Assembly (NCBI GenBank): GCA_963803975.1
Contig: CAWDOY010000045.1
Coordinates: forward strand, 50,684-114,683
Reading direction: 5' to 3'
From: an uncultured delta proteobacterium
GTDB taxonomy: Bacteria; Desulfobacterota; WTBG01; CAIYCZ01
DNA: 64,000 nt
Both the position numbers and the translations under genes were made by a program. This document shows, piece by piece, positions 5,033 through 64,000 of this stretch. Every line of letters starts with the position of its first letter. Position 1 is the stretch's first letter. The notes beneath the pieces are model-generated. The model ran no database searches. It saw only the letters and a list, made by a program, of their open reading frames with translations, and was not told the origin of the DNA.

Positions 5033-5446
5033 GCACCAGCGGCTTATAAACTGAACTTTTAATAATGATGGTTTTGCGCGGCCAAGGGGCTGTTTGGCGA
5101 ACGGTTCTATCGGCAGGTCTTTTCCAAGAAGCTAAAATAAATCATAAAACGTGTACAATTTTGATTGCTGTTAATGGGAGCTTGCTTTGCGATGAGGCAA
5201 CTGAAGGCAGGAGCCATTGAGTGTCAATAAAAAAATCTGCGGCAGGTTACGGGGGCAGGCTTTACATACTTGGGCGATGCCAGTCGAGCCGTCTGAATGT
5301 GGCGGGCCTTTTAGCCGGCGGTTTGCTCTTTACCGCCCACATCCCGGCATGCGGCAATACCTGCATGATTACCTCGGGCTGGTCTGTAAAAAATGCTTCA
5401 AGGGAATAAACAGGGGTGCCCACGTCCTCCTGCTCTGTATTCGTTA

Positions 5447-6442: not shown

Positions 6443-6783
6443 AGTGTTCTCCCGTTGTTTTCTATGTACATGATAACGCTGCCTTGCTGATAACCGTATC
6501 TCATTCTTGTGGCTTTAATTTTATCTCACTATCCCGGGCAGCATGTTCTATTGACAGGAACTCGCTGTGGGATGAAACAAATATAGGCAAGGGGTAATTG
6601 TGTGTCAATAAAAATCCGTCGCAAGACACGGGAATGTGTTTTGGGATCAGAATGAGGCGGGCTGTTAGCCGGCGGCATGAAATGCCGCAAGGGCTGCGTG
6701 AGGAGGCTATGCTAACCCACTTAACAATGATGCAAATCGCTGCAACTGCTCTCCCGGTCCTATCCAAACGGGCGGCCTGAGGA

Positions 6784-7560: not shown

Positions 7561-7567
7561 AGCATCT

Positions 7568-8572
7568 CTATCGTGCCAGGGAAGAAAGAAATTTAATGGA
7601 GCGCATGAGCTCTTCGAACTGCTCCGGGTAGAGTGACTGGGGACCGTCAGAAAGCGCGTGTTTCGGGTCGTGATGGACTTCCACAATCAGCCCGTGCGCG
7701 CCGACCGCAGCTGCCCCGCGGGACAGAGGGATAACCTGATCCCGCTTGCCGGCGGCATGACTGGGGTCAACGATGATAGGCAGGTGGCTCAGTATTTTTA
7801 CTGCAGGGATCGCGCTCAAGTCCAGGGTGTTGCGCGAATGATCGGCAAAGGTTCTTACCCCGCGCTCGCACAGGATGATCTGGTGGTTTCCCTCTGCCAT
7901 GATGTATTCCGCTGCCATGAGCAGCTCTTCGATGGTGGCAGACATGCCGCGCTTGAGCAGTATCGGCTTTGAGCTTTTGCCGGCGCGCTTCAGCAGGGAA
8001 AAATTCTGCATGTTGCGGGCGCCGATTTGGATGACATCTGCCACCTTTTCAACAACGGCAAGCACATCATGGTCAATGGCTTCGGTGACAATCAGGAGAC
8101 CGGTCTCTTTACGAACCTGATCCAGAATAGCGAGCCCTTTATCTTCCAGCCCCTGAAAACTGTAGGGAGATGTTCGGGGTTTAAAGGCGCCGCCGCGAAA
8201 GAGCCGGGCCCCGGCCTTTTTTACCGCGCGGGCAATGGTCAGGCACTGCTCAAGGCTTTCCACTGCACAGGGGCCGGCAATAACGGTAAAATCGCTGCCG
8301 CCGATTGTTACATCACCTATCTGAATGACCGTATTCTCGGGCTTTACCTCACGGCTCACCAGCTTATAGGGCTTGGAAACCGGTATGGCGTCCTTAACCC
8401 CGTCCAGGCCGAAAAAAAGCTCAGGGTCGAGCGGGCCGTCATTACCGATGATGCCGATTGCTATGCGCTCGCTCCCGGGTATTGCCACCGGTGTTAAACC
8501 GAGTTTTTTAATTTCTTCATTGATCCGGTCTATCTGTTCCGGGGTGGCATCCTTTTGCATTACAATGAGCAC
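7568..8572 (-). CDS. aroF: DAHP synthase (class I-beta, N-terminal regulatory domain)
   Basis: IAGPCAVES, GGAFKPRTSPYSFQG, QIGARNMQN, DPSHAAG. Confidence 0.95.
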   Translation of the reverse strand: MLIVMQKDATPEQIDRINEEIKKLGLTPVAIPGSERIAIGIIGNDGPLDPELFFGLDGVKDAIPVSKPYKLVSREVKPENTVIQIGDVTIGGSDFTVIAGPCAVESLEQCLTIARAVKKAGARLFRGGAFKPRTSPYSFQGLEDKGLAILDQVRKETGLLIVTEAIDHDVLAVVEKVADVIQIGARNMQNFSLLKRAGKSSKPILLKRGMSATIEELLMAAEYIMAEGNHQIILCERGVRTFADHSRNTLDLSAIPAVKILSHLPIIVDPSHAAGKRDQVIPLSRGAAAVGAHGLIVEVHHDPKHALSDGPQSLYPEQFEELMRSIKFLSSLAR

Positions 8573-45600: not shown

Positions 45601-45668
45601 ACGGCCCTTTCCCGGAAAACGTTTGCTGTCAGGACTGATCTAACATGTTGCTGGGAAAAATTTCCCCC

Positions 45669-45794
45669 CAGGCTGGTCAAAAATACCCTGATGCAAGGCG
45701 CGCGAAATCAAGAGGAATGAGTCGTACTGTAACAGTACGTCGCAATGACGAAGGATGAGCGCAACGCAGCAGACGGGTGTTTTTCAACAGCCTG
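45669..45794. mobile_element. MITE-like element (126 bp)
   Basis: Terminal inverted repeats caggctggtcaaaaa / tttttcaacagcctg; internal palindrome cgtactgtaacagtacg; no ORF. Confidence 0.65.
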
Positions 45795-45803
45795 CTAAAG
45801 CCC

Positions 45804-45969: not shown

Positions 45970-46056
45970 GCCGAAGTGGTGGAATTGGCAGACACGCTAG
46001 GTTCAGGGTCTAGTGGGGGTTCCCCCGTGGGAGTTCGAGTCTCCCCTTCGGCACCA
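45970..46056 (+). tRNA. tRNA-Leu (anticodon CAG)
   Basis: Acceptor stem gccgaag/cttcggc, anticodon loop ttcaggg, long variable arm, gttcgagt T-loop, encoded CCA. Confidence 0.97.
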
Positions 46057-46061
46057 TGCAA

Positions 46062-46134
46062 AATCAAGAGGTTACGTCATTTGGCGTAAGCGCTTTTTTG
46101 TTTCATAAGAGTTTTGGTCAACGGTTTGGTCAAC
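46062..46134. promoter_or_regulatory. att-junction-like signature: IHF consensus plus direct repeats
   Basis: AATCAAgaggTTA matches WATCAANNNNTTR; tttggtcaac at 46113 and 46125. Confidence 0.55.
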
Positions 46135-46160
46135 ACTTGCAGGGAAGGTCTATTCGCATA

Positions 46161-46283
46161 GATATATTGTGATGCACGATTTGCGGATCAAGTATTCAAT
46201 GAATAACGCCTAAATAACTTCTATCGCTGTTGATACATAAGCTGCACTTTTTTCTGAGAATTTCCTGCCACAACATATAGTAT
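46161..46283 (+). repeat. Island intergenic element copy A
   Basis: Core acttctatcgctgttgatacataagctgcactttttt...ccacaacat. Confidence 0.9.
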
Positions 46284-46307
46284 AAATGGGAAACGGGATA
46301 TTTAATT

Positions 46308-49300
46308 TTATTTTTTAGGCAGGGCTGCTTTTAGTTGTGTACCTTCTTTAGGTGCTGATTTAATCAAAAATTCTCCCCCCATAGACTCAACACGCTCTCT
46401 CATTCCTTGTATACCAATCTTAAGTTTGCCCTTCCTCTTTGAAACTTTGTCAACATCAAATCCAACACCATCATCAGTTATGTCGAGATGCACCTTGTTT
46501 TTATCTGCATAAAGGCTCACTGACACTTTTTGTGCTTTAGCATGCTTAGTGATATTGGTTAATGCTTCCTGTATTACTCGGTATATGACAATTGCCGTAT
46601 CCTCTGGTATTTTCTTTTTAGCCAAATCATTTCTGAAGGTTATTTTTAATGTTGAATGCTTTTTGATAATTATCAAAAAAATCTGTCAGGGCCGCTGTCA
46701 GACCCACAATTTCTAAATTCGGGGGCCGTAAGTCTACCGCTAATCTTCTCAAATCCTCCACAGCTTTTCGTAACGCAGCCTGAGCTTGTTCAAGTGCTTT
46801 AAAAGTAGCTTGCTTGTTGTTTTCTTTACATTCTTCCTTGGCAATGCTTATTTGGGAAGCAACCGAGATAGCCATAGAGCCAAGTTCATCATGCAGTGTT
46901 GTTGAGATATTCTTCCGTTCTTCCTCCCTGGCTGACAACAGCATACCGGCAAATTTCTTGAGATATTCCTGTGAAATCTGTAATTTCTCATTGGCCTTTC
47001 TCAGTTCAGCGGTACGCTGCTTTACCTTCTTTTCTAATTCATCATGAGCCTTTTGTAATTCTTGCTCCATTCGCTTAAGCTCGGTAATATCTATCCCGAC
47101 TCCTGCAAGGTATGACTGCCCTTCAATAGCCATTCTTCTGCCAGTAAAAAAATAAGGACTTACCTTGCCATGTCTGCCCAATAACTTCGCCTCAACTTCA
47201 GCTTGGCCATTAGTAAAGACATCCTTCATTTTGCTTGCAATCAGGGCTCTGTCATCCTTATGGATCAGTGGAAAGGTTATTGATGTATTGCAATTCTTTG
47301 GCTGCGTACCCCGTAACGGCTTCTAAATTTTTATTCCAACGAATAAAGTGTCCCTGTTCATCTAAGAGGTAGAAAACTCCCGGTAAGCTGTTTATTACCG
47401 TATCACTGAAATACTTCTCCTGTTGGAGCGCCTTCTCTGTCTGTTTGCGTTCAGTAATATCACGTACAATTCCGCTAAAGAATATCTGTCCTTATCTTCC
47501 AGTAAGAGGTGGAAGTTTCAGAGAGAAATTCAGTGCCGTCTTTTCTGACAGCTAATCCTTCCACAGTTTTTCCAATATAGGATGAGTGACCGGTCTTTGA
47601 TAAAATCGTGCTCTGTTTTTCCTGTCATATAAGGCGTTGCATCCTTCCGGCCTTAAAAGCTCTATAGATTTCCCCACTATCTCTTTTGCTGTATATCCGT
47701 AAATCTTTTCAGCGGCTTTGTTCCAATAAAGAATTTTACCACTGCTGTCTGTAGTGATAATTGCATCAGTGAAGATTCTGCAATTGTTCTGAAACGCTCT
47801 TCTCTTTCCCGCAAGGCTTCTTCATGTTGCTTTCGTTCGGTGATGTCCCTTATAGTTGCGACACCACCCACTCTGTTTCCATCTCTATCCTGCAACATGG
47901 TTATATTTAACTCTATAGGGCACAAACTCCCATCTTTTCTCAACCAGTTCGCTTCAAAGCTTTTTATAACTCCTTTTTCCCGTAAGCGGTTATTATCTTG
48001 GACCCTATCTGGGCGTGCTTCTCATCGTTCGGAAACAGTTCTGATGTGTGTTTCCCTATGAGCTCCTCTTGGTTAAAGCCTAACATCTTTTCTACTGCCT
48101 TGTTTACACTTATTACATATCCCTTTTCATCGCTGACCATCATCACATCGGGGGTGGTATTATAAATATTTTCTAAGAAATCTTTGGTGTTAATAAGCTC
48201 TTTCTCTGCCCGCTTTCGCTCGGTGATATCCTCATAAATCACAACGATTTCGCCCGATGGCAACTTATAGGCGTAATTCTCTCTCCACCCCGATATCCTC
48301 TTATCTTGATAAAATGCAACAGGATAATCTTCAGGTTTTCCGGTTTTCCATACACGCCGCAATACCTCCAGCAGGCCAAACTCTTTGACACCAGGGAAAG
48401 CTTCGGTAAGGAATTTACCTATAAGCGCCTCCTTTTTGAGCTGTTCGATATTTTCTGCGGCACGATTAAATTCTTTAATAATAAAATCCCTGCCATCGTC
48501 AATCGCTTCATAGATGACTAAAGCATTCTTGCTATTATTAAACAGTTCCCTATACCTTGATTCGCTATTTTCTAAGGCTTCCTCAGCCTGTTTGCGCTCG
48601 GTGATGTCACGCATGATAAAACTGAAACAATACTGGCCCTGTACTTTCCAGCCAGAAAACGTTATTTCAACAGGAAATTCACTGCCATCTTTCCTGAGAG
48701 CGATGGTTTCAAGTGGTTTTTTATTATTCGATAACATGCCTGTTTTAAAAAACTTCTGCCACTGCTTTCTGGTCTTGATCCCGTAAACGCTCTGGTAGTA
48801 ACATTGTATACGATTTCCCTACTATCCCCTTTTCTTCATAGCCAAACATTTCCACAGCTGCTTTATTCCAAAAGATAATAGTGCCGTTCTGGTCTGATAT
48901 AAGAATTGCATCAGGAGACGATTCAGCAACTGCCCTGAACCGTTCTTCGCTTTCCTGCAGTGCCTCCTCGTGCTGCTTGCGCTCGGTGATGTCACGTCCG
49001 ATGCAATACCACAGCCCCTTCTCTGGCAACGGGGCAGCCGTCCATTGGACGATTCGTATTGAACCGTCTTTATGAATATAACGATTTTCAAAATCAACAG
49101 TCAGCATGCCTGATACAAGCCGTGCTACTTCATCATCATTTTTTTGATGGTCTTCGGGATGGATAAAATCAAGAAATGGCCTTGAAAGGAGGTGTTCTCT
49201 CGGGTAGCCAAGTGTTCTTTCCCACGCAGGGTTTACATATTTAAAATAGCCATCTGTTGCTGCAATACAGATGAGGTCCTGAGACATGTTGAGGATCCTC

Positions 49301-49785
49301 TCATATTCTTTTTCTATCCGCTTCTGCTCGCTGATGTCACGCAGAGAGCCGCCAAAATAATACTTATCCTTTATTTTCCAGTTTGACACGGTGAATTCAG
49401 CAGGAAATTTAGTGCCATCTTTTCTTTTCGCTACACTTTCTTTTGGCTTTTTACCAAATAATGAAAATCCTCTTTCCAGAACATGCTCTTTCCCTTCATT
49501 ATATTCCCCCATGGCCTCGTCCGAAATCAACATCGTGATTGGATTACCCAGTACTTCTTCTTTTTCATACCCGAAGATTTCTGTTGCTGTTTTATTCCAG
49601 AAAATAATGTTTCCATCCTGGTCTGAAATTATAACTGCATCCAGCGATGTTTCAGAAACTGCACGGAGATGTTCTTCTGCTTCTTTTGAATTAGCTAATG
49701 ATGTTTCTAATTCGATATTCCGCTGACGCAGTTCCCTCAATTCATCTAAAAGCTGGGTGTTGGTTTTATGTGCGTCCTGCTGCAT
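46308..49785 (-). CDS. Multi-PAS (about 7) HisKA_3/NarX-type histidine kinase, split by several frameshifts
   Basis: Successive PAS/PAC segments ending DITERK; H-box LHDELG; QEALTNITKH, DDGVGF, GIQGMRER. Confidence 0.85.
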
Positions 49786-49929
49786 ATTTAAAATCTCCTG
49801 AAATAAAGGGGGGATTATTAGAGAGGGATAGCCATTAGTTGCTAGAATTATTATATACTCTGGGGAGAAAAAATAAACGTTTTATTAATTGTCTATTGCT
49901 GATAGGGAGAAATAAAGGCAGTTACAAAC

Positions 49930-50037
49930 GATGCTTTGCAAAAGAAGTGTTCAATGAATTTAGGTTGCTACACTTCTATCGCTGTTGATACATAAGCTGC
50001 ACTTTTTTCTGAGCATTTCCTGCCACAACATCTTGTG
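49930..50037 (+). repeat. Island intergenic element copy B
   Basis: 59/60 identity with copy A over 49972-50031. Confidence 0.9.
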
Positions 50038-50248
50038 TTCAATAGTCAACATCCTTGTTTCTCAAAATATACCCCACCAGTTCTTTATGTATGTAAAAAT
50101 TAGATGCTATATTTATAAAAGTAACTATTTATATGTGAATTAATATTATAGAAATAAATTATAATTTTCTTGACACGATATATAGAAAGAAGTAAATGGC
50201 GATTAGATGCTAAATAACGCATCACACAATTTTATAATGTAGTTACAC

Positions 50249-50363
50249 GAGGCAACGGCGATGGGTGCCGGGGTGATACTCATCAAAAGTTTTGTTGCCG
50301 ATTACTGTAACAAGAGTAACCGTCATCAGGAGAAGACTATGCCTGAGACGGTTTTTGTTTTTT
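50249..50363 (+). ncRNA. Riboswitch-like leader (candidate Na+/DUF1646 class) plus intrinsic terminator upstream of aqpZ
   Basis: Nested hairpin ggcaac/gttgcc and gatgggtg/tactcatc with a ccggggtga loop, then terminator aaccgtc...gacggtttttgtttttt; TATAAT at 50233-50238. Confidence 0.55.
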
Positions 50364-50455
50364 ATAACACTCTGACACAGCAACAGAAAATAAATTCCTT
50401 ACTAAATAAATTTCAGGCGTATCAACAATAACAAAACAACATAGTAGGGGTTGAG

Positions 50456-51145
50456 ATGAAAACGTATGGAGCAGAGTTCTTTGGAACTTTTTGGCTGGTG
50501 TTGGGCGGCTGTGGCAGTGCGCTGCTGGCCGCAGCATTCCCCAATGTAGGCATTGGCCTGCTGGGCGTATCTCTTGCCTTTGGTTTGACCGTTCTAACCA
50601 TGGCCTTTGCAATTGGGCATATCTCTGGCTGCCACCTTAATCCGGCAGTATCCGTCGGACTTTGGGCGGGTGGTCGCTTCCCTGCAGGCAAACTGGTGCC
50701 ATACATTGTAGCGCAGGTCCTTGGTGCGATAGCAGCCGGCGGCGTTCTGTACATTATTGCCAGTGGCAAAGCCGGCTTTGATGTAACCGCTGGTTTTGCC
50801 TCTAACGGCTATGGTGACCATTCACCCGGCGGTTACTCATTACTTGCGGCACTGGTCAGTGAAGTTGTCATGACGATGATGTTCTTGATCGTCATTCTGG
50901 GAGCAACTGACAAGCGGGCGCCGCAAGGCTTTGCGCCGATTGCTATTGGTCTGTGCCTTACCCTGATTCACTTGATCAGCATTCCCGTAACCAATACGTC
51001 TGTTAACCCTGCGCGGAGCACCGGCGTTGCGCTATATGTTGGAGGTTGGGCGGTTGCGCAACTGTGGCTGTTCTGGATTGCGCCGATTATTGGGGCGTTA
51101 CTGGGTGCAGTCGTTTATCGCTTCATCGGCACCAGCGACAACTAA
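50456..51145 (+). CDS. aqpZ: Aquaporin Z
   Basis: [28 protein letters not shown]. Confidence 0.97.
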
Positions 51146-51235
51146 TCAAGTTTGTTCAATGACGAGGTACTTTTGCGTTATAGTAATAAAAAACTAAAGT
51201 ATCCATTAACCAGTTAAACAGCAGGAGAAAATCCC

Positions 51236-51922
51236 ATGAGAAAAGAAATTTATAAGAACATAGTTATGTTAGCTGCAGTAACCAGCATGCTGTTAATTGC
51301 AGCTTCCGCAACCGCTGAACTTGAGCAGGCAACCATAATCTCAGGCCTTAAAGAGGCACTTTCCTTAAGCACCGAAAAGGCAATTGCCCTTGTGGGGAAA
51401 ACAGACGGATATTTTGGTAATCAAGCAATTAAGATTCTTATGCCGGAAAAGATGCGTATGATAACGGATGCTTTGGGTAAAATGGGGATGCAAAAACAGG
51501 TCGATGAATTTATTCTCAGCATGAACAGGGCAGCGGAAAAAGCGGCGCCGAAAGCAGCATCTATATTTGGCGATGCAATAAAAAACATGAACCTGGAGGA
51601 TGCCCAGAAGATTCTTAATGGTGGTGATACTGCGGCAACAGATTATTTTAAACTAAAAACCTCAAATAGTATCTATACTGAATTTAAGCCTATTATCGCA
51701 GCAACCATGGGAGAGGCGGGCACTACCCGTCTTTTTGAAAATATTATGAGCAAGGCCAAGACCCTGCCTTTGATGAGCGGGATAAAGTTTGACCTTGACG
51801 ATTATGTTACCAAGAAATCAACTGATGGTCTTTTTATGATGCTGGGGCAGCAGGAAAAAATGATTAGAATAAATCCCGGAGCACGGTCAACAGATCTTTT
51901 AAAGAAAGTTTTTGGTAAATAA
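51236..51922 (+). CDS. DUF4197 family secreted protein
   Basis: GLKEAL, SMNRAAEKA, ATDYF, DGLF...EKMIRINP. Confidence 0.88.
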   Translation: MRKEIYKNIVMLAAVTSMLLIAASATAELEQATIISGLKEALSLSTEKAIALVGKTDGYFGNQAIKILMPEKMRMITDALGKMGMQKQVDEFILSMNRAAEKAAPKAASIFGDAIKNMNLEDAQKILNGGDTAATDYFKLKTSNSIYTEFKPIIAATMGEAGTTRLFENIMSKAKTLPLMSGIKFDLDDYVTKKSTDGLFMMLGQQEKMIRINPGARSTDLLKKVFGK

Positions 51923-52004
51923 ACAGTGAAACAGAAGCCGGGGAACCGCATTTAAATGGTTTCCCAAAAAAACAAACCATTCACAAAGCAAAAAGGAGGT
52001 TTTT

Positions 52005-52407
52005 ATGAATAGGAAAATTTTAGCAGTACTGATTGGGGTGATGGTGGTTTTCACGTTCACTGCACTGTGTGTTGCCGAAGAAAAAGAGAATCAGCAAGCG
52101 GAGAAAATATCAAAAGCCCAGGAAGGTCTTAAGACCCTGGGGTATTACAAGGGTGAAGTGACCGGTAAAATGGACAAGGATACCCGGGATGCCGTCAAGG
52201 AGTTCCAGAAAAAAGAAGAAAACATGAAAATGCCGGCCGGCATGCTGACTGACAAAACCTGTAGTGCCATTGATGAGAAAGCAGAAAAAAAAGATGAAGA
52301 AGGATGAAGACAAGGGAAAGAACCCGATGGATAAGATGGAGGAAGGAAAAGGGAAAGTGCAGGAAGGAATGGACAAGATGAAGGGCGCGACTGACGTGGT
52401 GAAATAA
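52005..52407 (+). CDS. Secreted peptidoglycan-binding (PG_binding_1) protein (frameshift near 52300)
   Basis: QEGLKTLGYY...G.MDKDTRDAVKEFQK. Confidence 0.7.
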
Positions 52408-52467
52408 GGGAAAACGTATACCATATTGAGAGGGTAACATTAAAAGCTGAATCAGAGGAGGCGTATC

Positions 52468-53151
52468 ATGAAACATGTTTTAGTGGTGCTGCTTATCGCG
52501 GCTCTTATCCTGCCCGGTTGTGCAACCATAAAGGAGAATCCTAAGACCGCAATCGGCGCCGGGGTGGGTGCGGTGGTCGGCGCAGGGGTCGGCGCCGCAG
52601 TTGGCGGGGGCAAAGGCGCCGCGATTGGTGCAGTAGTCGGCGGTCTTGCCGGCGGCCTCATCGGGCATTACATGGACAAACAGAAGCGCGAATTTGATCA
52701 GCTGCTGGCAGAGTCACAGGCACGGGAGCAGGCAGCAATAATGCAGGGGGTGCAGAAGGAACAGAATGCCATTATCCTCACCTTCAAATCAGACGTGATG
52801 TTTGACACCAACTCATCCGTCATAAAATCTGCGGCTTACGCTTCAGGGGAAATTGATCGTGTGGCGCAAATTCTGAATAGATACCCTGACACCACCATAA
52901 AGGTGGTAGGGTATACCGACAGCACCGGATCGGAATCCTATAATCAACAGCTATCAGAGCAGCGGGCCAATTCAGTAAAGAACGCCCTGGTTGTTAAAAA
53001 CGTACAAACTGCCCGTATCTCTGCTCTTGGCATGGGAGAGTCTAATCCGATTGCAGACAACACAACCGAAGGCGGACGCCAGCTTAACCGTCGCGTTGCC
53101 ATAATCATTGAGCCCACACCACAAGCGGGCCAGGCGCAGCCGCAGGGTTAA
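52468..53151 (+). CDS. OmpA-family lipoprotein with glycine zipper
   Basis: LPGC lipobox, GAGVGAVVGAG zipper, GYTDSTG...LSEQRA...LNRRV. Confidence 0.93.
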   Translation: MKHVLVVLLIAALILPGCATIKENPKTAIGAGVGAVVGAGVGAAVGGGKGAAIGAVVGGLAGGLIGHYMDKQKREFDQLLAESQAREQAAIMQGVQKEQNAIILTFKSDVMFDTNSSVIKSAAYASGEIDRVAQILNRYPDTTIKVVGYTDSTGSESYNQQLSEQRANSVKNALVVKNVQTARISALGMGESNPIADNTTEGGRQLNRRVAIIIEPTPQAGQAQPQG

Positions 53152-53186
53152 CAGCAGGCAGTGTAAAACAGGTGCTACTATTTATG

Positions 53187-53217
53187 AAGGCAGAGCATTC
53201 ACTGCTCTGCCTTTTTT
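53187..53217 (+). terminator. Intrinsic terminator
   Basis: aaggcagagca-ttcac-tgctctgcctttttt. Confidence 0.8.
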
Positions 53218-53223
53218 CCATAT

Positions 53224-53386
53224 CAATATGTTGTGATTATGCATTGTGAATCTAAACTTGTATTTTTTAAACTGTACAGATGCTTTGTAAAAGAAGTGTG
53301 CAATAGATTTAAGCTGCTAAACTTCTATTGCTGTTGATACATAAGCTTCACTTTTTATCGGGTAATGCCCACCACAAGATGTAGAT
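53224..53386 (+). repeat. Island intergenic element copy C
   Basis: gatgctttgtaaaagaagtg...gctgttgatacataagcttcacttttt...accacaagatgtag. Confidence 0.88.
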
Positions 53387-53430
53387 TTTTGTCTCAATAA
53401 TCCTGTACATATTTTGCGGCGTATTTTTTA

Positions 53431-53459
53431 TTGACACACAATAAATAGCGGCCTATACT
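53431..53459 (+). promoter_or_regulatory. Sigma70 promoter upstream of the lipocalin gene
   Basis: TTGACA-17 bp-TATACT. Confidence 0.65.
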
Positions 53460-53814
53460 TTTTTCATACGAAAGCAAGTTTCTCAATGATCCTGCATGTC
53501 TTATAAAAATGGGGGGTAAGTCAACGCTTATTCAAGGCATAGAAATCATCAGAGAAGACTATCTTTTGCATTAACGGAAATTCCTTGATAGAAAATTGAT
53601 ACCTCATTTTATATTTTACAAAGCAAAATCGAAAACATGACCCCAATACTTTTTGCTTTTTAAAAATACTCTATTTCTTCTGGCACAATACTATTTTCAC
53701 TTCATTGCATAATTCAAGTTAAACACTTTTCTACGAGTAATTCACACAGGGTAGTTAGCTCAAAAAGCAAATTTTTTACCAATAGCAAAACCTTTAAAAT
53801 AAGGAGGAAGCTAT

Positions 53815-54854
53815 ATGCATACAATTTTGAAATTTCGAAAGCATCGAAAGACATTGATTTGCATTTTTATTTCAGTGCTTTTTATTATCGGCTGCCCCCA
53901 GTTGTTGCCACCGGAGACAGTGGAGTATGTGGATCTCTGAGCGTTACACCGGATTATGGTACGAGATTGCCCGTTACGACACTCCTAACGATGAAGATTT
54001 GGTAGCAGTTACTGCTGAATATACGCTTAATGAGGATGGAACATTAAGTATATTAAATAGAGGTTTGGTTGGTAACTTGGACGGTCCCTGCACTTCGACA
54101 GAAGGAGTTGCCCGCGTGGTTGACCCTGAAACCAATGCGAAACTCAAAGTCAAAATGACACGTCCCAACATGCCATATAAAAATTTTGAGTACTGGATCA
54201 TCGATCTCGGCGAATACTATTCATATTCAGTTGTGTCCAACTCTAATAAGAGCTCATTGTATATCCTCAGCCGGACACCGACCATAGAAGAATCAACCTA
54301 CCAGGACTTGATTGATAGTCTCACAACGAGAGGGTTTGATCCGGAAAGAATTGTACCAACACTTCAAAACAGTAAAATGCCACCACCGGAGACAGTGGAT
54401 TCTGTGGATCTAACGCGCTACGCTGGATTATGGTACGAGATTGCCCGTTACGACACTCCTTTTGATGAAGATGCGGTCGCGGTTACCGCTGAATACACGC
54501 TCAATGATGATGGCACGGTGAGGGTTGTCAATAAGGGCTTGGTTGGAGGCTTAGACTGGCACCCCCACCTCGATAGAAGGAGTTGCCCGGGTAGTTGACC
54601 CTGCAACCAACTCAAAACTTTCAGTCACATTCGACCGACCCGACATTGCAGGAGTCGAATTTGATTACTGGATTATTGAACTAGATGAAGACTACCAATA
54701 TGCGGTAGTAACCAATGAAACAAGGTTTGTACTCTACATTTTAAGCAGAACCCCTGCTCTGGAAGATTCTGTCTATGAAGATATTCTCTATCGGATAGTG
54801 AAGAAAGGTTTTGACGCAGATAGGGTTGAGCTTACTCCTCAGCCAGAAAAGTAA
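53815..54854 (+). CDS. Tandem double lipocalin (Blc-like) lipoprotein (frameshifts near 53935 and 54560)
   Basis: RBS AAGGAGG; IIGC lipobox; two copies of RYxGLWYEIAR...YWII...ILSRTP. Confidence 0.85.
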
Positions 54855-55056
54855 ACTATTATCGCCTAAAGGCGGTAGCTTGTGGGCCAAGGGTTTGAGG
54901 ATTCTAGGGGTCAAGTGAAGCCATGGTCATTCCGTTTGTTTACCTTTGGACCCTTGCGGCGCAAAAACAGCCGTTTGGTTGACATAATAACACTTACAAG
55001 CAAAAGAGCAGGGTCATTAAGTTGGCTCTGCTCTTTTTGTCTATAAAATGGTTGTC

Positions 55057-55194
55057 GATATATTGTGACGACGAATGTTTTTGCTATTGCCTGCCATGAC
55101 ACATTGCAAATGAAATCATCAATGAATTTAAGCTGCGAAACTTCTATCGGTGCTGATATACAAAGTCTGCAGTGAGTTACCTTGAATAACTGCC
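55057..55194 (+). repeat. Island intergenic element copy D (diverged right half)
   Basis: tcatcaatgaatttaagctgcgaaacttctatcggtgctgata. Confidence 0.75.
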
Positions 55195-55337
55195 CCCTCT
55201 CCTTTAAAACGCTAAACAGATGAAAAGCAAGCAGCCTTGCAAAAAATGCCAAAGCTTTATTGATGACAGAGAGACATTTTAAGTATAATAAAATCAGTTT
55301 AAAGGACTAACGTAAATTATATAAAGGAGAATATACG

Positions 55338-55860
55338 ATGAAAAAATTTCTATTATTAATACTTGTTGTTGCTTTTTTTGGCAGTGGGTGTGAAACCATG
55401 AAGGAGAATAAAAGGTCACTGGCAGACTCACAGGCACGGGAGCAGTCAGCAATTATGCAGGGGGTGCAGCGAGAAAAGGACACCCTTATTCTGACTTTTA
55501 AAACGGATGTGCTGTTTGACAAGAACTCATCCGCCATAAAACCGAATGCATATGGTTCAGGGGAAATTGACCGCGTGGCGCAAATTCTCAATAGATACCC
55601 TGACACCACCATAAAGGTAGTGGCGTTATACAGACAGCACCGAGGCACATAATCAGCAGTTATCAGAGCTGCGGGCAAATGCGGTAAAAAACGCCCTGGT
55701 GGGTAAAAACGTAATTGCTTCCCGGATAACGGCGATAGGTACGGGAAAGTCTAATCCGAAAGCCGATAACAGTACGCCAGAGGGGCGTCAGTTGAACCGT
55801 CGCGTTGCAATTATAATTGAGCCTACACAGCAGGCGGGCCAGCCGCAACCACAGAATTAA
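55338..55860 (+). CDS. OmpA-family lipoprotein paralog lacking the glycine zipper (frameshifted, possibly a pseudogene)
   Basis: LADSQAREQSAIMQGVQ and SGEIDRVAQILNRYPDTTIKVV are near-identical to 52468-53151; LNRRVAIIIEP in the shifted frame. Confidence 0.8.
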
Positions 55861-55901
55861 TCAAAGGCGGGGCATTAACAGCTCTGCTTTTTTGCATATC
55901 A

Positions 55902-56020
55902 AAACTGTATCGTGTAATTGCTTGCAGGTTAAAGTCACAATTGGTTAACTTGAAGGACTACTCGCACATCTGACACGTAATGTGGAATTTAAAGAAAAAA
56001 GACCCAACCACTATATTTAG
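55902..56020 (+). repeat. Island intergenic element copy G (degenerate)
   Basis: tgacacgtaa to ccactatatttag spacing (27 nt) equals tgatacataa to ccacaagatgtag in copy C. Confidence 0.5.
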
Positions 56021-56075
56021 CGGTTAGGCCCTGCTAACTTCAAAAGGACTTATGCCTCAGCCCTACTAAAACTCT

Positions 56076-56564
56076 TTACTGTTTTTTCTTTCGCCTTGAA
56101 ACAGTCCGCCCTTTTTTCTCCTGCTGGACCTGTTCGAGTACCTCTCTCCTTTTCATGCCCTTTAAATCAGAAAGAGCTTTACGGATACCAGGTTTCCGTA
56201 GCTGCAGGCGACCGGGTTTGTTTTCCCATATGGAGACAATGTTATCGCAGACGCCGAGAAGTTTTGCCAACCGGGACTGAGAAATACCAAGACGGCCCCG
56301 GAGACTGCGGACCTGCCTGCCTGTAATGCTAAAACCATCCTCTTTCAGTTTGGTGGCATTATCATGAACCGGTCCATGGATTTTGCCCTGCAGCACAGCG
56401 AGTCTTTTGTTTTCTTTTTCAAGTGCGGCGATTCGCCGTTTGTGCTCATAGACGAGCTTTTTGAGAGCAGCGTTTGAAACTTTGAGAGGGGTGATGGTCA
56501 AATTGATTTCCCTGCGGGCCAGTCGCTTGATTTCATCCTTCAGTACATTGGCAATGTTGGGCAT
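56076..56564 (-). CDS. Coiled-coil plus XRE-type HTH DNA-binding protein
   Basis: MPNIANVLKDEIKRLARRE; VRSLRGRLGISQSRLAKLLGV...WE; minus-strand TTGACA-17-TATATT promoter at 56611-56639. Confidence 0.85.
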   Translation of the reverse strand: MPNIANVLKDEIKRLARREINLTITPLKVSNAALKKLVYEHKRRIAALEKENKRLAVLQGKIHGPVHDNATKLKEDGFSITGRQVRSLRGRLGISQSRLAKLLGVCDNIVSIWENKPGRLQLRKPGIRKALSDLKGMKRREVLEQVQQEKKGRTVSRRKKKQ

Positions 56565-56809
56565 GATTGTCTCCTTTATTACTGATAAAAACTCGCCTTT
56601 GGATGGGCATAATATAAAATAGGGGTGATTGTGTGTCAATAAAAAGTTCGGTGCATCGCATGTTTTGGTGCGACGGTTTTGAGGCGTAGTAAAAGAATGC
56701 TTGAATAATATTTCTGTTTCAGTCTACTATTAGTGACGCAGATTATTCTCATAGCGACAGCTGGTTAAAGGTATAAACTATAAAATATATTCGGGAAGAA
56801 GGTTGCTAT

Positions 56810-56989
56810 ATGAAAAAAAGGTTTTCCCTTTGTATGCTAATTGGTTTTTTTACTGTAGCAACCTTTTTTTACAGTGGATTCCTTATTGACGTACAATCGC
56901 TCCAGGCCTCTATACTTCCTTCATCCGAAAGCGAGTTCTTATCAATTTATTATTCAGCACTTAAAAATCCAATGGAGAAAGGAGGATAG
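56810..56989 (+). CDS. 59-aa signal-peptide-like ORF, possible gene remnant
   Basis: MKKRFSLCMLIGFFTVATFF...; preceded by GAAGG. Confidence 0.4.
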   Translation: MKKRFSLCMLIGFFTVATFFYSGFLIDVQSLQASILPSSESEFLSIYYSALKNPMEKGG

Positions 56990-57041
56990 TTTAAAGGAAT
57001 ATTGATAAAAAATATAAACCTATAGAAGAACGAGGGTCGAC

Positions 57042-57722
57042 ATGAAAAAAGTGGTAGTACTTTTTCTGGCAATTCTAATGGTTTCTTTACTGGCGAGCAG
57101 TGCCTTCTCTGGTGACGTTTCAATCACCGTCATAAAAAAAGGTGCCAAACCCAGCGGGTGCTTGTTAAAACAGCCGGCAATTAACATTTTTCCAAAAACC
57201 AGTGTTTCACCGAGCCAGACTTATTCCACGGTTTATATCTGTTCAGAAGCCAGCTGTGGCGACATCGAAGCTGAATTTGGTGGAGTATTGCATGATTCAT
57301 ATCTGGGTTGTGACAATAATTTGTCCTATGATAATGTCTCGCCCAATTCCTATTCCTTCTACGCCCAAAGCACAAATTGCAACACCAACTGGGAATATGA
57401 ATTACTTGTAGAGGAAGGGTATGATTATATTATCTGGCTTTGTCCTCCGGAAGGAGTCGTCTGTTGCAATCAGGGGTGTGCCGAAGATGGGAGTTTCAAT
57501 TGCGATGCGTGCAGTGGCGGATGTTATGCCGCCTATGTAACCAAAGATAGAACGGTGCTGGCCAATCTACGCCAATTCCGCAACTATATGGCTAAAAATA
57601 TTATTGGCCAAAAAGTTGTCACGGAGTATTACAAATTATCGCCAACGGCAATCAAGGTGGCCAAGAAATTTCCCTTCATAAAGGAGATGTCAAAAAAATT
57701 CCTTGGAGAAATTGCAAAATAA
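57042..57722 (+). CDS. Secreted Cys-rich protein with CFI-box-CTERM-like tail
   Basis: Signal peptide; GGCYAAYV...LRQFRNYM...GQKVVTEYYKLSP. Confidence 0.8.
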   Translation: MKKVVVLFLAILMVSLLASSAFSGDVSITVIKKGAKPSGCLLKQPAINIFPKTSVSPSQTYSTVYICSEASCGDIEAEFGGVLHDSYLGCDNNLSYDNVSPNSYSFYAQSTNCNTNWEYELLVEEGYDYIIWLCPPEGVVCCNQGCAEDGSFNCDACSGGCYAAYVTKDRTVLANLRQFRNYMAKNIIGQKVVTEYYKLSPTAIKVAKKFPFIKEMSKKFLGEIAK

Positions 57723-57734
57723 TATTTGGCAGCA

Positions 57735-57929
57735 ATGTTTTTTATGTGTCAGCTGGCAGGGTTCAGTAAGGTTGAAACAGATGCCTTAACCAGAAAGATA
57801 TTTAACTGTTATAAGTCTGCATTAAAAGTTGCAGCACGAACTGGTGCTAAATCCATAAAGATAAAAACAGGCAAATAGTTTTGTCCATGCGGCAGCGGGT
57901 TAAAATATAAGCGTTGCTGTGGGAAGAAT
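57735..57929 (+). pseudogene. Remnant with a SEC-C zinc-binding motif
   Basis: KTGK*FCPCGSGLKYKRCCGK, with an in-frame TAG at 57876. Confidence 0.6.
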
Positions 57930-57965
57930 ATTTACCTCAGACAGTGCAACAAATTTGCTATTGAC

Positions 57966-58066
57966 TTCGTAATGAAATGTAGAATTGTTTAAGCAGTGAG
58001 AATTGTTGCGCTCATAAACAGTAAGCATGAATTTTTACCATTAAGATGACACCACCACATATAGAT
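57966..58066 (+). repeat. Island intergenic element copy F (degenerate)
   Basis: tttaagc...gct...taagc.t.a.ttttta...caccac.a.at.tagat is collinear with copy C. Confidence 0.6.
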
Positions 58067-58068
58067 GC

Positions 58069-58102
58069 AAAAAGGCGGAGCCATTGTTAACTCCGCCCTT
58101 TT
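58069..58102. terminator. Bidirectional intrinsic terminator
   Basis: aaaaggcggag...ctccgccctttt. Confidence 0.7.
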
Positions 58103-58129
58103 GAGTATATTTAAAAACACAAATTTAAC

Positions 58130-61100
58130 TTAACACTGATTTTCACACTGTGGTTGATTGCATCCTCCGCAGCCTGGATCTTGGTCACACACATCTCCAA
58201 TTCCGTTATGGTTTGAATCAAGTTGCTGCGAATTACAGTTGGTCAGGCAATTGTCACACACATCCCCCTTACCATCATTATCGGTATCTCTCTGGTCTTT
58301 AATACACAGACCATTAGAAGAACACCCGTTTGCACAATCTGCATCACTGGTACAGTTTATACCAGGCTTATCTGAAGTTGAGGAGCAGGTGCCGAGGTTT
58401 GGGCCGTTGGGTTTATTGGGGCAGTTATCTTCCGTATCACGAGTGCCATCGTCATCCATGTCAGAATCGCATCCCGAACTGATAAAAGTGGCTGTCATTA
58501 AGTTTGACATTCCAGTATCTGTATTATTAATAAACACTATCCTTTTTCCATCTGCACTTATTTTAGGGTAGGAATTGAAATCATTTCCTGAATTTGTAAT
58601 CTGAATTATGCCAGATCCTTCCGAATATAGAAAAACCTCTTCGTTTCTATTTGGGTTTGATCCGACTAAATCAGCACTGGAAGTAAATACTATTTTGTCC
58701 CCATTTGCACTTATGGAAGGGACATCATTAAGCACAACTCCCGAATTTGTAATCTGTGTTATACCCACTCCTGCTGTAAAAAGGAATATTTCATCATTTG
58801 ATATAAATGCTATTTTCCTCCCATCTGCACTTATTACAGGGTCATGACTAGAAGCCGTAGAATTTGTAATCTGTGTTATCCCTACTCCTTCTGTAAAAAG
58901 GAATATTTCACAACTTTCATCTGGATTTAAGCCCACTAAATCAGCACATGAGGTAAATGCTATTTTCCCTCCATCTGAATTCACAGAAGGCTGAAAACTT
59001 GAAGCCATAGAATTTGTAATCTGTGTTATCCCTACTCCTTCCAGATACATAAAAATCTCTTCACTACCATCAGAATTTGTTCCTGCTAAATCGCCGTATG
59101 ATTTAAAAACAGTTTTACTCCCATCGGCATTTATTGAAATGTCATCAAACCATGTATTTTCTAGATAATTTGTAATCTGGATAATACCTGTTTCATCAGA
59201 ATATAAAAAGAGTTCTTGATTTCCATCCGGATTTGAGCCCACTAAATCAGCACTGGAAGTAAATGCTATTTTATTACCATCTCCACTTATAGAAGAGAGG
59301 ATATAATTATTTGAATTTGCAATAAGGTTTATTCCAAGCATTTCTGAGTACAGCAACAAATCTGTGCCTGATACAAAAGCTATTTTGCTTCCATTGACAC
59401 TTATCGATGGTGCATCAAGATATCCATCATAAATACTTGTAATAGGGGTTATCAATACATTGGCGTTTTTAACATTTTGCAAGAAAGATTTAGTAGTTGA
59501 TTTCCCTTCACTGCAAGTAATCTCGACTCGTATTTTAATATATATATCGCTAGTAACACACGGAGCAGTCCATACAGGATTTTGTTTGTTGGGTTCATCA
59601 AAACTTCCTGCATCAGCAGACCAAACATAAGTAATATTGTGACTAAAACAATCATATACCTCTATGTTACATTGAACTGTTTGTCCCTTTGCAGCAGGGT
59701 TTGGAGTACCTGAGGGGCCAGATATAATTACTAGTTCAGACAATTCATCTGCCCCAATATCATACCCATTAAATAATGGCCGCGTATCCCCATCAAAATC
59801 ATCTAATGGAGCATCCAGATTTGTTCCAGTATCAATACATGGTGAATTTGGGCTAAGATGATAGTTGCCTGCGATAGGATTAACAAACATAGGGTCTGCA
59901 GATATATTGCCTTCTCCTTCCCATCCATTCATCACACAACTATAAGTTACTTGAGTTCTTTCACCATTGATTTCCTCTGGCAAATTATTCCATAGAATAC
60001 TATTTTTGATAATTGGCATTACTTCATCGTTAAACTCTCCAATATATATGCCATAACCGGCACCCGGCCCCTCTGTTTTATTATCTGCTATTGTGCTGCT
60101 TATTATTTTAGCATTGTACCCACAACGTATTCCAGACACACCGGAACCACCATTAATTTTATTATTAATAATGAATGAGTTTGTAACTGTTAAGGAAGAA
60201 GAGTAAACACCTCCACCATCTGCCCCTTCCCCTGGCCCAGCCGAATTATTAGATATTATGCATCTCTTAATGGTCGGATTAGATCCAGAGTCAGAATAGA
60301 TTCCCCCACCATTAAATGCTGCACTATTCTGAGTTATTACACAGTTCGCTATTGTAGGAGAAGAAGAAACTGCAATAGATTCCCCCCCCGTAGCTAGAAC
60401 TATTACCTTTTATTATACAGTTAGTAATTAAAGCATTACGACAATCAGCAATACGCATTCCCCCTCCAGCATCATATTGTTCATTCCAATGATAACCTCC
60501 TGTTATAATGCAGTTCGATATTTTAAAATTACCATGCATTTCACCGCTGCTAACATGAACTGCTCTTTCACCCGATCCATTTATTATGAACCCATCAACC
60601 ATATTAACAGTTGCATATAGAGTTCCAATAATTGTAGTCTTATAATCATCCGGAACTTCTATGCCATAGTTACTAAACGCCCATCTTTCCCATTTTGTAT
60701 TATAGCCACCTTTTAATAACAAGCCTTCAGGTAATTGAACACCATAATAGGATCCCATACTCACAAGTAATGTTGCATCATTAGCCCACCCAAATTGATT
60801 CACTGCGTGCTGGATACTCTGCCATGGATTAAGTTTACTCCCATCACCAGTTTCATCATTCCCTGAAAATTGACTTACATAATAAATATCTCCACTCACA
60901 TTAATCTGCACTGAAGCATTTATTGAAAGCCCTTCAGTACAGCTGACCGTAACATTAATAGTATAATTACCATTTTCCTCAGGAGCTATCCAAACAGGGT
61001 TCTTTTCAGTAGTATCATCAAAGCTTCCACCATTTGCAGACCATAAATAATTTAACTTATGTCCGAATAAATCAACCGCATTAAGCGTTAATTGAATTTC

Positions 61101-63527
61101 CTCAGTTGGCTTGACACTCTCAGGTGTAGAGGATGGCCCTGAAGTAATTATTATCCTGTCTTCATTAGGATATACAGTTATGCATTCACAATTACTCCAA
61201 TCTGTTTCGCCGCCATCTCCAAAGTTACTACTAGGATAAACTGCTTTAAGGCGATAACAGTGCGTACCATATTCTTTATTATAATAATTGACATAGGTAT
61301 CAGTCCCATAATAAACAATTGAAGGATTACTAAAAGAGACATCAGTATCTTCTTCAAGCACATAAGCTGATGCCCATTCTAACCCAATCCAACTTACCTC
61401 ATAATTACCAGTTATATTGAAAACCCCAAGTTTATTGAGATGTGGGGCAGTATATGTTTTAAAATTTACAGTAAAAGCATATGGGTTGTGATAACACTCA
61501 TCATTAGAGGTGTCCCGTAATCTTATTAGATAAGTTCCTGGGTCTGCAGTGCCATTAAAAATATCCCCCGTATAATTATTTCCAAAACCGAAAAATTCTC
61601 CCGAACCATTCTGATACTCTATGTAGGATGAATTAACCACGCCTGAATTTTCAATATGTGCTCGCATCAATCCTTTTTGGGGAATATTAATACTATACCA
61701 GTCTATGTCACTCGTGGTACCTACTTTATTGCACGGATAAAGGGTTGCCATTATCGATGAATTTAAAGAAATCACGGCTGCTGTTTCTTCGGTATCATTG
61801 TTTTCGTATGCATCCTGATTATTAACTACATATACTTGAATAGGTATATTTATATATTGGGTTCCATAAAAAATTCTTACATTCCCATAATGATATTGCC
61901 CAGCTATAAGACCATTGGTTCTTATACCCATACTTAGGGCACCATAATGTCGAGGTAGCAGAGAACCGCTACTGTTTTCTGCAAATTCTATCCATGAGGA
62001 ACCCTGGGTTATTGTTGCAGACCAATTAAGACTTACTGGGCTGTTATTGTACAATTCAACATCCTCAACTCTCCAGGCATTCTGATAAAGGTTACCAAAA
62101 TTAAGTTCTTGAGGAGCAATACTTAAATCGTAAAGTATGCAGTTTAAATCATTGAAACAATCAAGATCATTACAATCTATCAATCCGTCTCTATCGTTAT
62201 CTATTCCATCAGAACAGTTCTCTGGTAATATACAAGAAGCATCATTGTAACAATCAGGATCATTACAATCTGCTAATTGATCTCCATCATTATCTATGCC
62301 ATCAGTACAATTCTCAATACTCGGAGTTACCGTTATTGTTAGGGAATGCTCATCTGTTTCGGGTTCACGCGCTGTATTTAAAGCATTTGATGCTTCATAG
62401 TGATATTGATAATTTCCTGGCTGTAAAGTGACAGAAACAAAATAAACTTTACCGTCTGCATAGTTATTATCATTTGATACAGCTTCATCCATAGTGAAAG
62501 TTCCACCTGGATTAAGCACCAATCGTATGTAACTCGGAGGTTTTTGTGTGGTATCAGTATAATTGATATAAAAGTTCACGCTTTGTTGATTTATCGAGAT
62601 CTGCGACGAAGACAGTTGAGGGGAATGAGTAGTGTTCCAGAATAATTTATAAAGCCCCGCTGTATATTGATATGCCAAAGGCATTAATTTATTAGCCATT
62701 AAGGATAGTTCTTCATTATTTAATGGAACATCTACTGTTGGCCATCCATCAAACCAAGTTGCCTCTGCATTTATAGTATTGCCTTCAACATCTGAATATA
62801 AGTTAGAACCACTTGGACTTGGGAAATATTGTGTTCGCTGGGCTAAATTATAAAATAAATTTTCTATGTTATTAAAAAACACAGGTTCTCCATTAGCCGA
62901 AAATAAAGAATAGTTTGAATTAATATAATCCTCGTAAGGATCACCGCCTGGATGAGGAAGCAAATGAACATGGGCTGGTACACTCATATCCTGTAAAAGA
63001 TGGGCTATTCTTCCCAAATAATAATAAGCCTTCCCTTTATCTACTGATAATCCATTTAGACCGAGATAATAAGGCAGTACGAATTGATTCCAATAATACA
63101 ATGCATCATGCAATGCTGAAGGGTATGGCTCACCAAGGAGTGGGTCAAAACCAGATGAAAGCAAATCAGGGTTATCACAATCCCAGAAATGACTGTAAAA
63201 TATTGTTAAGCCACCCTCATCCCAAACATGTCTATCAGCTATTGGATCATATTCATCTTCTTCACGTTCGCCTTCATATATATCATCACCAGTTGTAGAT
63301 TTTATAAAATAGTCTGTATTATCTGGTTCTATATGAAGATAATTGTTGATCTCGTGAGTACCAGGACCAGGCCAAAGAAGATGCGCCATAAGTCCTATGT
63401 GTGCGTGAGCATCTCCACCATACGCAGATGCTTTGTCAACACATAATGAAAAAGGATTAATAAAAAATATTAATAAAAAAACTGAAAATATTAATAAAGC
63501 CTTTATTTGAATTTTTCTTTCTCTCAT
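58130..63527 (-). CDS. Giant (~1800 aa) secreted modular protein: Zn-dependent phospholipase C/P1 nuclease-like domain, Cys/Asp Ca-binding repeats, Ig/FN3/PKD-like domains, beta-helix, TolB-like propeller, TSP3-like tail (one frameshift near 60368)
   Basis: [28 protein letters not shown]; two ENCxDGIDND repeats; GGGIY beta-helix repeats; SPCIDTG; ISADGxKIAF repeats; DNCPNKPN. The two ORFs join by a 1-base shift. Confidence 0.8.
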
Positions 63528-63554
63528 TGTCAAAATCCTTTGTTTAATATTTGC

Positions 63555-63668
63555 AAACACAAAAAACCGCCAACAGGTATTGACCAACCTGAAGGCGGTT
63601 ATATATTCTTGTTAACCCTTAACACCTGAAATCACTATCCCCCTCCCCGGAAATAGTTTATGTGCTAA
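63555..63668 (-). promoter_or_regulatory. Leader hairpin plus intrinsic terminator (attenuator/riboswitch-like) upstream of the giant gene
   Basis: Minus strand: ttagcac..actattt-ccggggaggg-ggatagt..gtgttaa, then taacaaga, then aaccgccttcagg...cctgttggcggtttttt. Confidence 0.55.
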
Positions 63669-63824
63669 TGCTCTAAGTTTCTTAATTATTGATTTGTACC
63701 AGCATTATATCCAATCAGATATGAAACACAAGCATTATTACAGGCGAGAATTTTAAGCATTTCTAACTATTTTAAACAATTTATCATTTGAGCGGTTTAA
63801 AAGTGGGCAGATGAAGGGATAAAA

Positions 63825-63932
63825 ATCAATATCTTGTGGTGGGCATTTACAGTTGAAAAGTGAAGCTTATGTATCAACAGCGCGAGTAATTTAGCAGCTC
63901 AAATTCATTGATGACTTTATTTGGAAAGCATT
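63825..63932 (-). repeat. Island intergenic element copy E (inverted)
   Basis: Reverse complement: aatgctttccaaataaagtcatcaatgaatttgagctgctaaattactcgcgctgttgatacataagcttcacttttc...atgcccaccacaagatattga. Confidence 0.88.
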
Positions 63933-64000
63933 AGTGGTAGTTCAAAAAAATCATAGCAATCTGCATGAATATTGTAACCTTAAGCCACCAAAATATATTG

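Follow-up and report, generated by a model that had tools for sequence, protein, structure and literature searches.

Mobile insertion cassettes (MICs), which are IS231-derived in Bacillus and TnXax1-derived in Xanthomonas, are clustered elements in which passengers lie between inverted ends, accompanied by a target duplication but with no transposase of their own (PMC4337579). Other systems exchange genes at repeated sites. Class 1 integrons in Tn402-like transposons, and integrons lying between MITEs (miniature inverted-repeat transposable elements), combine a transposable frame with a polar exchangeable array (PMC9771954), while the PeSL cassettes of T4-type phages have intergenic repeats of ~ 100 bp with adjoining promoters and terminators, shuffled open reading frames (ORFs) and spread crossovers (PMC2839356). 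Here we describe an element family found in a stretch of 64,000 nucleotides (hereafter the window) from the genome of an uncultured delta proteobacterium, in which copies of an intergenic repeat separate gene modules downstream of a tRNA-Leu gene. These are very probably a new order-wide family of non-autonomous cargo transposons that make 7-bp target duplications. Our preferred reading, to which we give a probability of roughly 0.55, is that they are MIC-like non-autonomous cargo transposons, and that a trans-acting enzyme also swaps their modules at an internal site. The transposon part of this reading is well supported, whereas the internal site is what we infer.

Four of five MIC features are present, i.e., inverted ends facing the cargo, a duplication, an empty site and passengers without a transposase; the fifth, the parent element, was not found among the loci scanned. 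The elements also differ from MICs in their ends of ~ 170 bp with an internal dyad, in their polar multi-module arrays joined by fused inner half-ends, and in their 7-bp duplications, as opposed to 5 bp or 10–12 bp (PMC4337579). Although polarity and exchange resemble integrons, we do not file the elements there, as the attC and intI tests fail: attC R boxes were found on 0/110 copy strands, there is no consensus hairpin and no linked intI, loci number dozens per genome, and the modules come with promoters and terminators of their own and often comprise several genes. DNA folding gave mean z values of −0.9 and −1.0, and 5 and 4 of 25 fell below −2. Like pdif modules, the arrays have repeated boundary sites and would be served by a recombinase in trans (PMC9771954); unlike pdif, the sites are direct, ~ 190 bp long and without a match to the host dif arms. 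They differ from PeSL cassettes in being chromosomal, in having transposon ends and duplications, and in a conserved core that is neither promoter nor stem-loop. No description of the element, or of cargo arrays joined at an internal site, was found in the literature searched, which left subscription papers, ISfinder and supplements largely uncovered, and end lists there may bear on novelty.

Methods

The source genome (G000; assembly GCA_963803975.1) comprises 4.25 Mb in 57 contigs and is 98% complete, the window being C45:50684-114683 (contig CAWDOY010000045.1). Comparisons were made with a genome of the same genus (G001), a relative (G003) and a genome of another family (G006), among others. 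A profile was built from five window copies and run against the G000 contigs, using the reversed genome as a control, which gave 0 matches. The resulting set of 193 anchored copies consists of those in G000, 12 G001 loci and 93 metagenome loci (from a metagenome scan that gave 97 stretches); the metagenome loci were selected with a pattern that contains the heptamer described below, and the comparison loci are mostly short metagenome contigs. Three contig runs were used, labelled sediment, freshwater and unspecified metagenome. Class, order and phylum genomes were scanned with a sequence-only model of the outer ends.

Results

The unit is ~ 190 bp long and has two inverted arms. An array reads left end, cargo, any number of further joint-and-cargo steps, and right end. 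A full joint runs from an inverted B arm through a left segment, the dyad and 38 bp to the heptamer TGATACA and the A arm, with position-specific conservation. The A and B arms share homology (> 5 bits for the A model on 10/55 reversed B arms vs 0/275 shuffles) and face into the cargo. Going inward from a B arm (n = 108), the next arm was a facing A 51 times and a second B 5 times, with no neighbour in the other 52, so that a facing A makes up 51 of the 56 inward neighbours. Going inward from an A arm (n = 202), it was a facing B 50 times, an A on the same strand 36 times and another part 8 times, with nothing in 108. The dyad takes the form [C/A]TT-N8-AAG in 116 of the 144 copies having AAG, which is missing in 22/166. 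The heptamer is present in 180/193 copies and relatives carry variants. Array starts bear an extra conserved segment (C), as do array ends (D), and the two align as one inverted repeat with sharp, TGTAA-type termini. Each outer part is ~ 70 bp, starts 5'-TGTAA and holds two ~ 18-bp repeats 33 bp apart, followed by the dyad and then by the inner A or B arm pointing into the cargo. Typical G000 arrays lie on contigs C35 (C-A, joints, B), C26 and C25.

Direct repeats of 7 bp border each of the four facing C-D pairs spaced < 3 kb; three are exact and one matches at 6/7. The exact duplications lie on contigs C25 and C50 of G000 and around a 1896-bp single-gene element in G006, and the 6/7 case is locus L044 of G001; a pair 22 kb apart matched at 2/7. 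Under the observed column frequencies the chance of an exact 7-bp match is ~ 0.001, and 6/7 matches arose in 8/351 unrelated pairs. From site to site the duplicated 7-mers are different, with a common symmetric nnTnAnn bias: T stands at position 3 in 24/30 outer flanks and A at position 5 in 23/30, a count that leaves out 23 uncalled or partial end hits, and the order-level loci have T at 3 in 18/25 and A at 5 in 19/25. The counterpart of the C25 site in G003 (on its contig C26) is empty, the flanking genes being adjacent with stop codons 17 bp apart, while G001 carries both flanks with other cargo between them. A second query yielded no joined empty site. Symmetric target bias and site-specific duplications point to a DDE transposase. 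TGT termini with spaced internal repeats likewise resemble DDE ends, and TGT ends are found in the IS21, IS481, Tn7 and Tn552 group.

Element parts form 39 loci on 28 of the 57 G000 contigs. Compared with 3.8 expected and at most 14 in 2000 draws, 23 of the 43 anchored copies there (≥ 30 bits) have a neighbour within 5 kb. The DNA around the copies is AT-richer (GC 0.46 vs 0.50), and a tRNA gene lies within 12 kb of only 9/43 copies. Adjacent copies < 6 kb apart are co-oriented without exception (14/14 in G000, 37/37 in other loci) with a spacing of 0.5–3.8 kb; their downstream genes point either way and elements mostly lie directly behind host genes. G001 has at least 20 copies. The outer-end model matched 22/42 class genomes at E ≤ 0.05, and the 12 with a best E < 1e-4 all belong to the 21 genomes of the order. 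Of 151 genomes in a phylum sample 5 matched; two of the five lie beyond the order and gave a single weak match apiece, with no more than 30 candidates scored per genome. The exact end pattern across 401 phylum genomes recovered G000 and one weak match only. The family extends across this bacterial order. Plasmids and phages held no match to the element; of the scans of viral contigs, three were empty and two gave coding-sequence coincidences only.

Modules are exchanged at the repeated joints, a conclusion supported by the flanks. Among all pairs of 179 copies, which are non-independent, 26 share the left flank only, 13 the right only and 3 both. This bears out the claim of an earlier reading of the window, made from the sequence alone (the sequence-only reading), that copies delimit exchangeable modules. 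Orthologous flanks usually carry different cargo, cargo at one site varies between strains, and re-paired flanks occur between the G000 and G001 assemblies as well as within G000. Synteny between these two genomes breaks inside the repeat at several loci, as that reading requires, yet the positions are spread and not fixed. Linkage decays within 10–20 bp along the repeat and is lowest across the heptamer (few site pairs). Spread breakpoints and fast linkage decay mean that homologous exchange or conversion contributes, and disfavour a single fixed crossover. The idea of recombination sites in an integron-like shuffling platform holds as to the polar arrays and exchangeable modules; it missed the transposon-type outer ends with their 7-bp duplications. 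No excised circle was seen in the three runs, which consist of contigs only, or in a raw-read run that gave 3 reads.

Other alignments single out the dyad. Classified with left and right flank models trained on the same copies, the left × right combinations were standard-A 112, C-A 19, M2-D 13 and M2-A 6, the rest being unclassified. Three alignments change between non-homologous left classes at the dyad. Copy 6 of the window and contig C40 have a common right flank from the dyad onward, but a B end vs a C end; C26 and G001 locus L039 have a standard vs an M2 segment, likewise switching at the dyad; and a cassette duplicated on C35 and C3 (1090 bp, 94.6%) begins there. Junctions to unrelated DNA often end at the dyad or just left of it. 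Left truncation was found in 29/121 copies, all between −64 and −45 relative to the heptamer, in a set picked for intact AAG that thereby excludes breaks further right. It is about an even chance that site-specific recombination at the internal dyad accounts for part of the exchange. The heptamer as an invariant crossover is rejected: relatives carry variants, apparent half-sites are diverged arms, and the metagenome loci were picked by the heptamer.

The window contains two opposed arrays, a forward array from tRNA-Leu and a reverse array with copies 6 and 7, and its GC content is ~ 0.52 before the tRNA gene and 0.35–0.44 after it. The features are as follows.

45970..46056, plus strand: tRNA-Leu(CAG), anchor of the forward array (sequence, Rfam)
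46113..46149, plus: tRNA-flank segment, two direct 10-mers and then a dyad-like motif with a 6-bp spacer
46168..46283, plus: copy 1, dyad region, heptamer at 46231 and A arm (profile match)
46308..49785, minus: cargo, PAS histidine kinase split into several ORFs
49927..50039, plus: copy 2, dyad region, heptamer at 49986 and A arm (profile match)
50456..53151, plus: cargo, aquaporin, DUF4197, peptidoglycan (PG)-binding protein and OmpA
53217..53388, plus: copy 3, dyad preceded by a weak B arm and followed by the heptamer (at 53335) and the A arm (profile match)
53389..53490, plus: shared sigma70-type promoter module, −35 at 53431, 17-bp spacer, −10 at 53454
53927..54856, plus: cargo, tandem lipocalin, frameshifted
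55086..55173, plus: copy 4, truncated in its A arm, with the dyad region and a variant of the heptamer (profile match)
55338..55860, plus: cargo, second OmpA, broken
55922..56021, plus: copy 5, diverged, with a variant (A2) arm (Mid model, 10.9 bits)
56076..56639, minus: cargo, HTH protein
57042..57722, plus: CFI-box-CTERM secreted protein
57963..58071, minus: copy 6, right-end half with a B arm, an M2 segment and the dyad, closing the reverse array (33.5 bits)
58130..63587, minus: cargo, two ORFs of a giant secreted protein, the C-terminal one with PD40 and TSP3 repeats
63822..64000, minus: copy 7, complete joint that runs from a B arm extending to the contig end through a standard left segment, the dyad and the heptamer to the A arm

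The sequence-only reading had listed seven related copies of a ~ 100–110 bp element that delimits the modules of a tRNA-Leu island. Its length falls short of the full unit, and island specificity does not survive the genome-wide distribution; scatter over the genome, which it had taken as the mark of a generic repeat, is partly borne out, yet the copies are clustered and lie in low-GC DNA. Copies 1–4 and 7 are strong (88–149 bits in the profile search) and copy 5 is diverged, its arm type being found again in order-level relatives. Copy 6 is real but had been misread: it is the B arm of a right end on the minus strand, co-oriented with copy 7. The gene modules named between the copies were confirmed by scans, and the 46 kb of core genes, said to hold no copy, contain no part > 9.4 bits. 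It was also right that the copies do not match attC, dif or CRISPR repeats. An Rfam search of the window returned the tRNA only, and with a spacing of 0.5–3.8 kb a CRISPR or structured RNA is rejected; RNAalifold on 20 plus-strand copies found 8 pairs and no covariation. Sequence past base 64,000 had been proposed as a place for the recombinase; this base is the end of contig C45 and the assembly has no further sequence past it.

Around the tRNA gene, four related tRNA-flank sequences (L180–L183) part ways within a few bases past the dyad-like motif, and a single contig with 23 letters on the short side gives weak evidence that 46149 is joined to 49985, leaving out the PAS module. Contig C48, which has no mapped element part, also carries about 2 kb of the aquaporin-DUF4197-PG-binding-OmpA cargo (90%). 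Paralogous copies of the genes of this module lie on C48, C53, C36 and C42. The HTH protein also adjoins the element at three other loci. Beside copy 6 is a decayed gene fragment with a SEC-C-like motif (57718–57990), 88% identical to C40:50854-51126.

Shared promoter and terminator modules adjoin many copies. The conserved promoter module (−35, −10, 17-bp spacer, flanking inverted repeat) has 18 motif hits in G000, of which 9 lie directly after the A arm of a copy; its instances in the window are 53389–53490, 56580–56645 (minus), 56880–56950 and 6549–6614 (minus). Within the arms, an NrdR-like box occurs in 34/55 A arms and 13/55 B arms, and the IHF consensus is matched in 18/55, both of which we treat as leads. 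The NrdR-like box also lies upstream of genes that are smc-, mraZ-, parA- and topoisomerase VI B-like by their translations, boxes outside the element being found in G000 at C3:224508, C47:211245, C47:146020 and C25:63345. This suggests a site for a cell-cycle regulator of the host; seven boxes outside the element were checked, and none had a recognisable nrd gene next to it.

The sequence-only reading had placed the recombinase outside the window; no linked integrase was found. Recombinases of G000 are XerC, XerD and one fragment beside tRNA-Pro, and G001 has two further integrases (C520, C557) with no element parts nearby. PF00239 and PF07508 gave 0 matches in 5 genomes and PF04986 gave 0 in G000 and G001; IS91, resolvase and large serine recombinases were accordingly rejected as families without matches in G000 or G001. 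Scans covered 143, 132, 144, 79, 38 and 48 neighbouring ORFs, the last four being subsets of 158, 116, 49 and 71 listed ORFs with some additions. Apart from recombinases included as controls, core genes lie outside the arrays, and the cargo within them is varied and often encodes secreted proteins (CFI-box-CTERM, TSP3, fn3, Lcl, LRR). Transposases among the neighbours occur once each (IS21, IS256, ISAs1, ISAzo13, IS110), and of the transposases met, own ends were read for IS21 and an rve element of G002 only. The ends of IS21 on C15, of the rve gene at the C3 end, of the G002 rve element and of IS4/5-type loci do not match. Of 91 transposase or integrase loci, only a broken Y1 locus on C42, lying between two B-like arms, has element arms > 11 bits; Y1 transposases have 8 matches in G000 and, as only this broken copy is near element parts, are rejected as the enzyme. 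The rve loci of five genomes and the rve_3 loci of the order were without these ends, and a search with PF09299 had no positive control. No autonomous element with the same ends was present among the loci scanned, which come from incomplete assemblies.

A complete-looking rve-type insertion sequence at L307 (G002:C594) has TGACA ends and repeated 20-bp motifs resembling the inner box. The first cargo of the longest array (G000 C35:52920-54354, L024) is a tandem DUF1670 pair; similar pairs occur in two unrelated phylum genomes and are possibly a mobile unit of their own. As the enzyme the pair is rejected, being present in 1/5 close genomes, with loci elsewhere that lack the ends and an Atlas search that gave only DUF1670. 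A candidate host dif lies at G000 C3:246089-246116 (minus), ~ 7 kb from xerD, and is matched in G001 and G003; the repeat agrees with its arms at 12–15/22 at best, vs 11–16 in shuffled sequence.

Discussion

On our preferred reading, a DDE transposase acting in trans would seed the elements, and a trans-acting site-specific recombinase, probably of the tyrosine type, would exchange strands at the dyad. Modules of the form A-cargo-B would leave as circles closed by a B-dyad-A joint and could re-enter at any dyad, which would build polar arrays and rearrange the chromosome between arrays, while RecA-type exchange between similar copies would add scattered crossovers and mosaicism. A lambda-type attP, attL or attR site has a comparable layout, with a central dyad of 8-bp spacer, long symmetric arms, an IHF-like box and halves that combine into four classes. 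Unlike such sites, the spacer here is not constant, there is no fixed crossover and no integrase, and many chromosomal sites lie in a transposon-ended frame; the lambda-type feature found from sequence evidence by itself is the core dyad with a 6–8 bp spacer where flanks switch. More tentatively, and at somewhat less than even odds, we see a two-tier gene-capture platform, in which transposable frames would serve as dozens of landing sites, each long inverted end would hold a recombination site, and a trans recombinase would load, excise and reorder self-expressing modules without attC, dif or a linked integrase.

Several results weigh against the preferred reading. The 8-bp spacer of the dyad varies in sequence, only four duplications could be tested, and one or both outer ends are missing from many arrays, including both in the window. 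Estimated breakpoints range from −128 to +43 relative to the heptamer in shared-left pairs and from −20 to +83 in shared-right pairs, and 0/13 of the latter reach the dyad at −41. The left segment of most joints differs from the M2 segment of right ends (112 vs 6), so that most joints are not simple products of a right end and a left end. No empty C-dyad-D pair was found in the order and class genome scan, nor an excised circle in the runs described above, and no cognate transposase or recombinase was linked to the element in the scans.

The most serious alternative, which we rate as less likely, is that of plain mobile insertion cassettes with host homologous recombination, in which joints would arise by rare microhomology deletion between tandem ends, RecA would shuffle the ~ 190-bp copies, and the dyad would be a binding site of the transposase or a host factor only. 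The spread breakpoints, the decay of linkage all along the repeat and the lack of a recombinase in scans agree with it, and PeSL cassettes provide a precedent for shuffling without a known recombinase (PMC2839356). However, the non-homologous class switches at the dyad would leave it just ~ 8–14 bp of homology, junctions to unrelated DNA would not be expected to stop so often at or just left of the dyad, and conversion alone leaves the position-specific conservation of the joint unexplained.

Far less probable is a single tyrosine recombinase for everything, with the outer 7-bp repeats as overlap regions of an integrative element and no DDE step. The usual overlap length is 7 bp, repeats and a dyad-like motif flank two tRNA genes, and no matching DDE transposase was found; against this, the 7-mers differ by site while being exact or near-exact at each, with a symmetric bias, and the termini resemble those of DDE elements. 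Elements of the strand-biased circularizing (SE) type, which have four core genes, leave a donor-derived 6-bp footprint instead (PMC10782965), and an SE element is itself rejected here on the exact 7-bp duplications and on cargo scans that held no such genes. Least likely, and largely refuted by the duplications, are PeSL-like regulatory promoter-terminator cassettes, the site of a host regulon or assembly chimaeras at repeats, in each case without mobile ends, for which speak the adjoining promoter and terminator modules, the NrdR-like box in 34/55 A arms and before smc-, parA-, mraZ- and topoisomerase-like genes, and the short metagenome contigs, but against which also stand the empty site, the sharp termini, downstream genes in either direction and re-pairing both between the G000 and G001 assemblies and within G000.

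Among known transposons, the ISPepr1 subgroup of the IS4 family makes 7–8 bp duplications, but its YT-AA-YTT ends differ from the TGTAA termini here and it is rejected as a match (PMC2266710, Table 1). The elements described define an order-wide mobile-element family that transposase homology cannot find. They account for much of the turnover of accessory genes, many of them for secreted or surface proteins, and for synteny breaks in these genomes. Were the dyad a true recombination site, integron-like arrays could be reached by another route than attC or pdif, with a recombinase whose spacer specificity is relaxed and a transposase that makes 7-bp duplications, for both of which the end model allows a search, and these sediment bacteria would have an integron-like gene-shuffling system.

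Additional observations

A second, unrelated dispersed repeat of ~ 160 bp lies in the window at 45639–45798, has many dozens of copies in G000 and is MITE- or REPIN-like. Its depth is very high in three contig runs, and G000 has 8 Y1 transposase matches. On contig C40 of G000, 3552–8273 and 57669–62391 form a large inverted duplication, possibly due to strain mixing or an assembly artefact.

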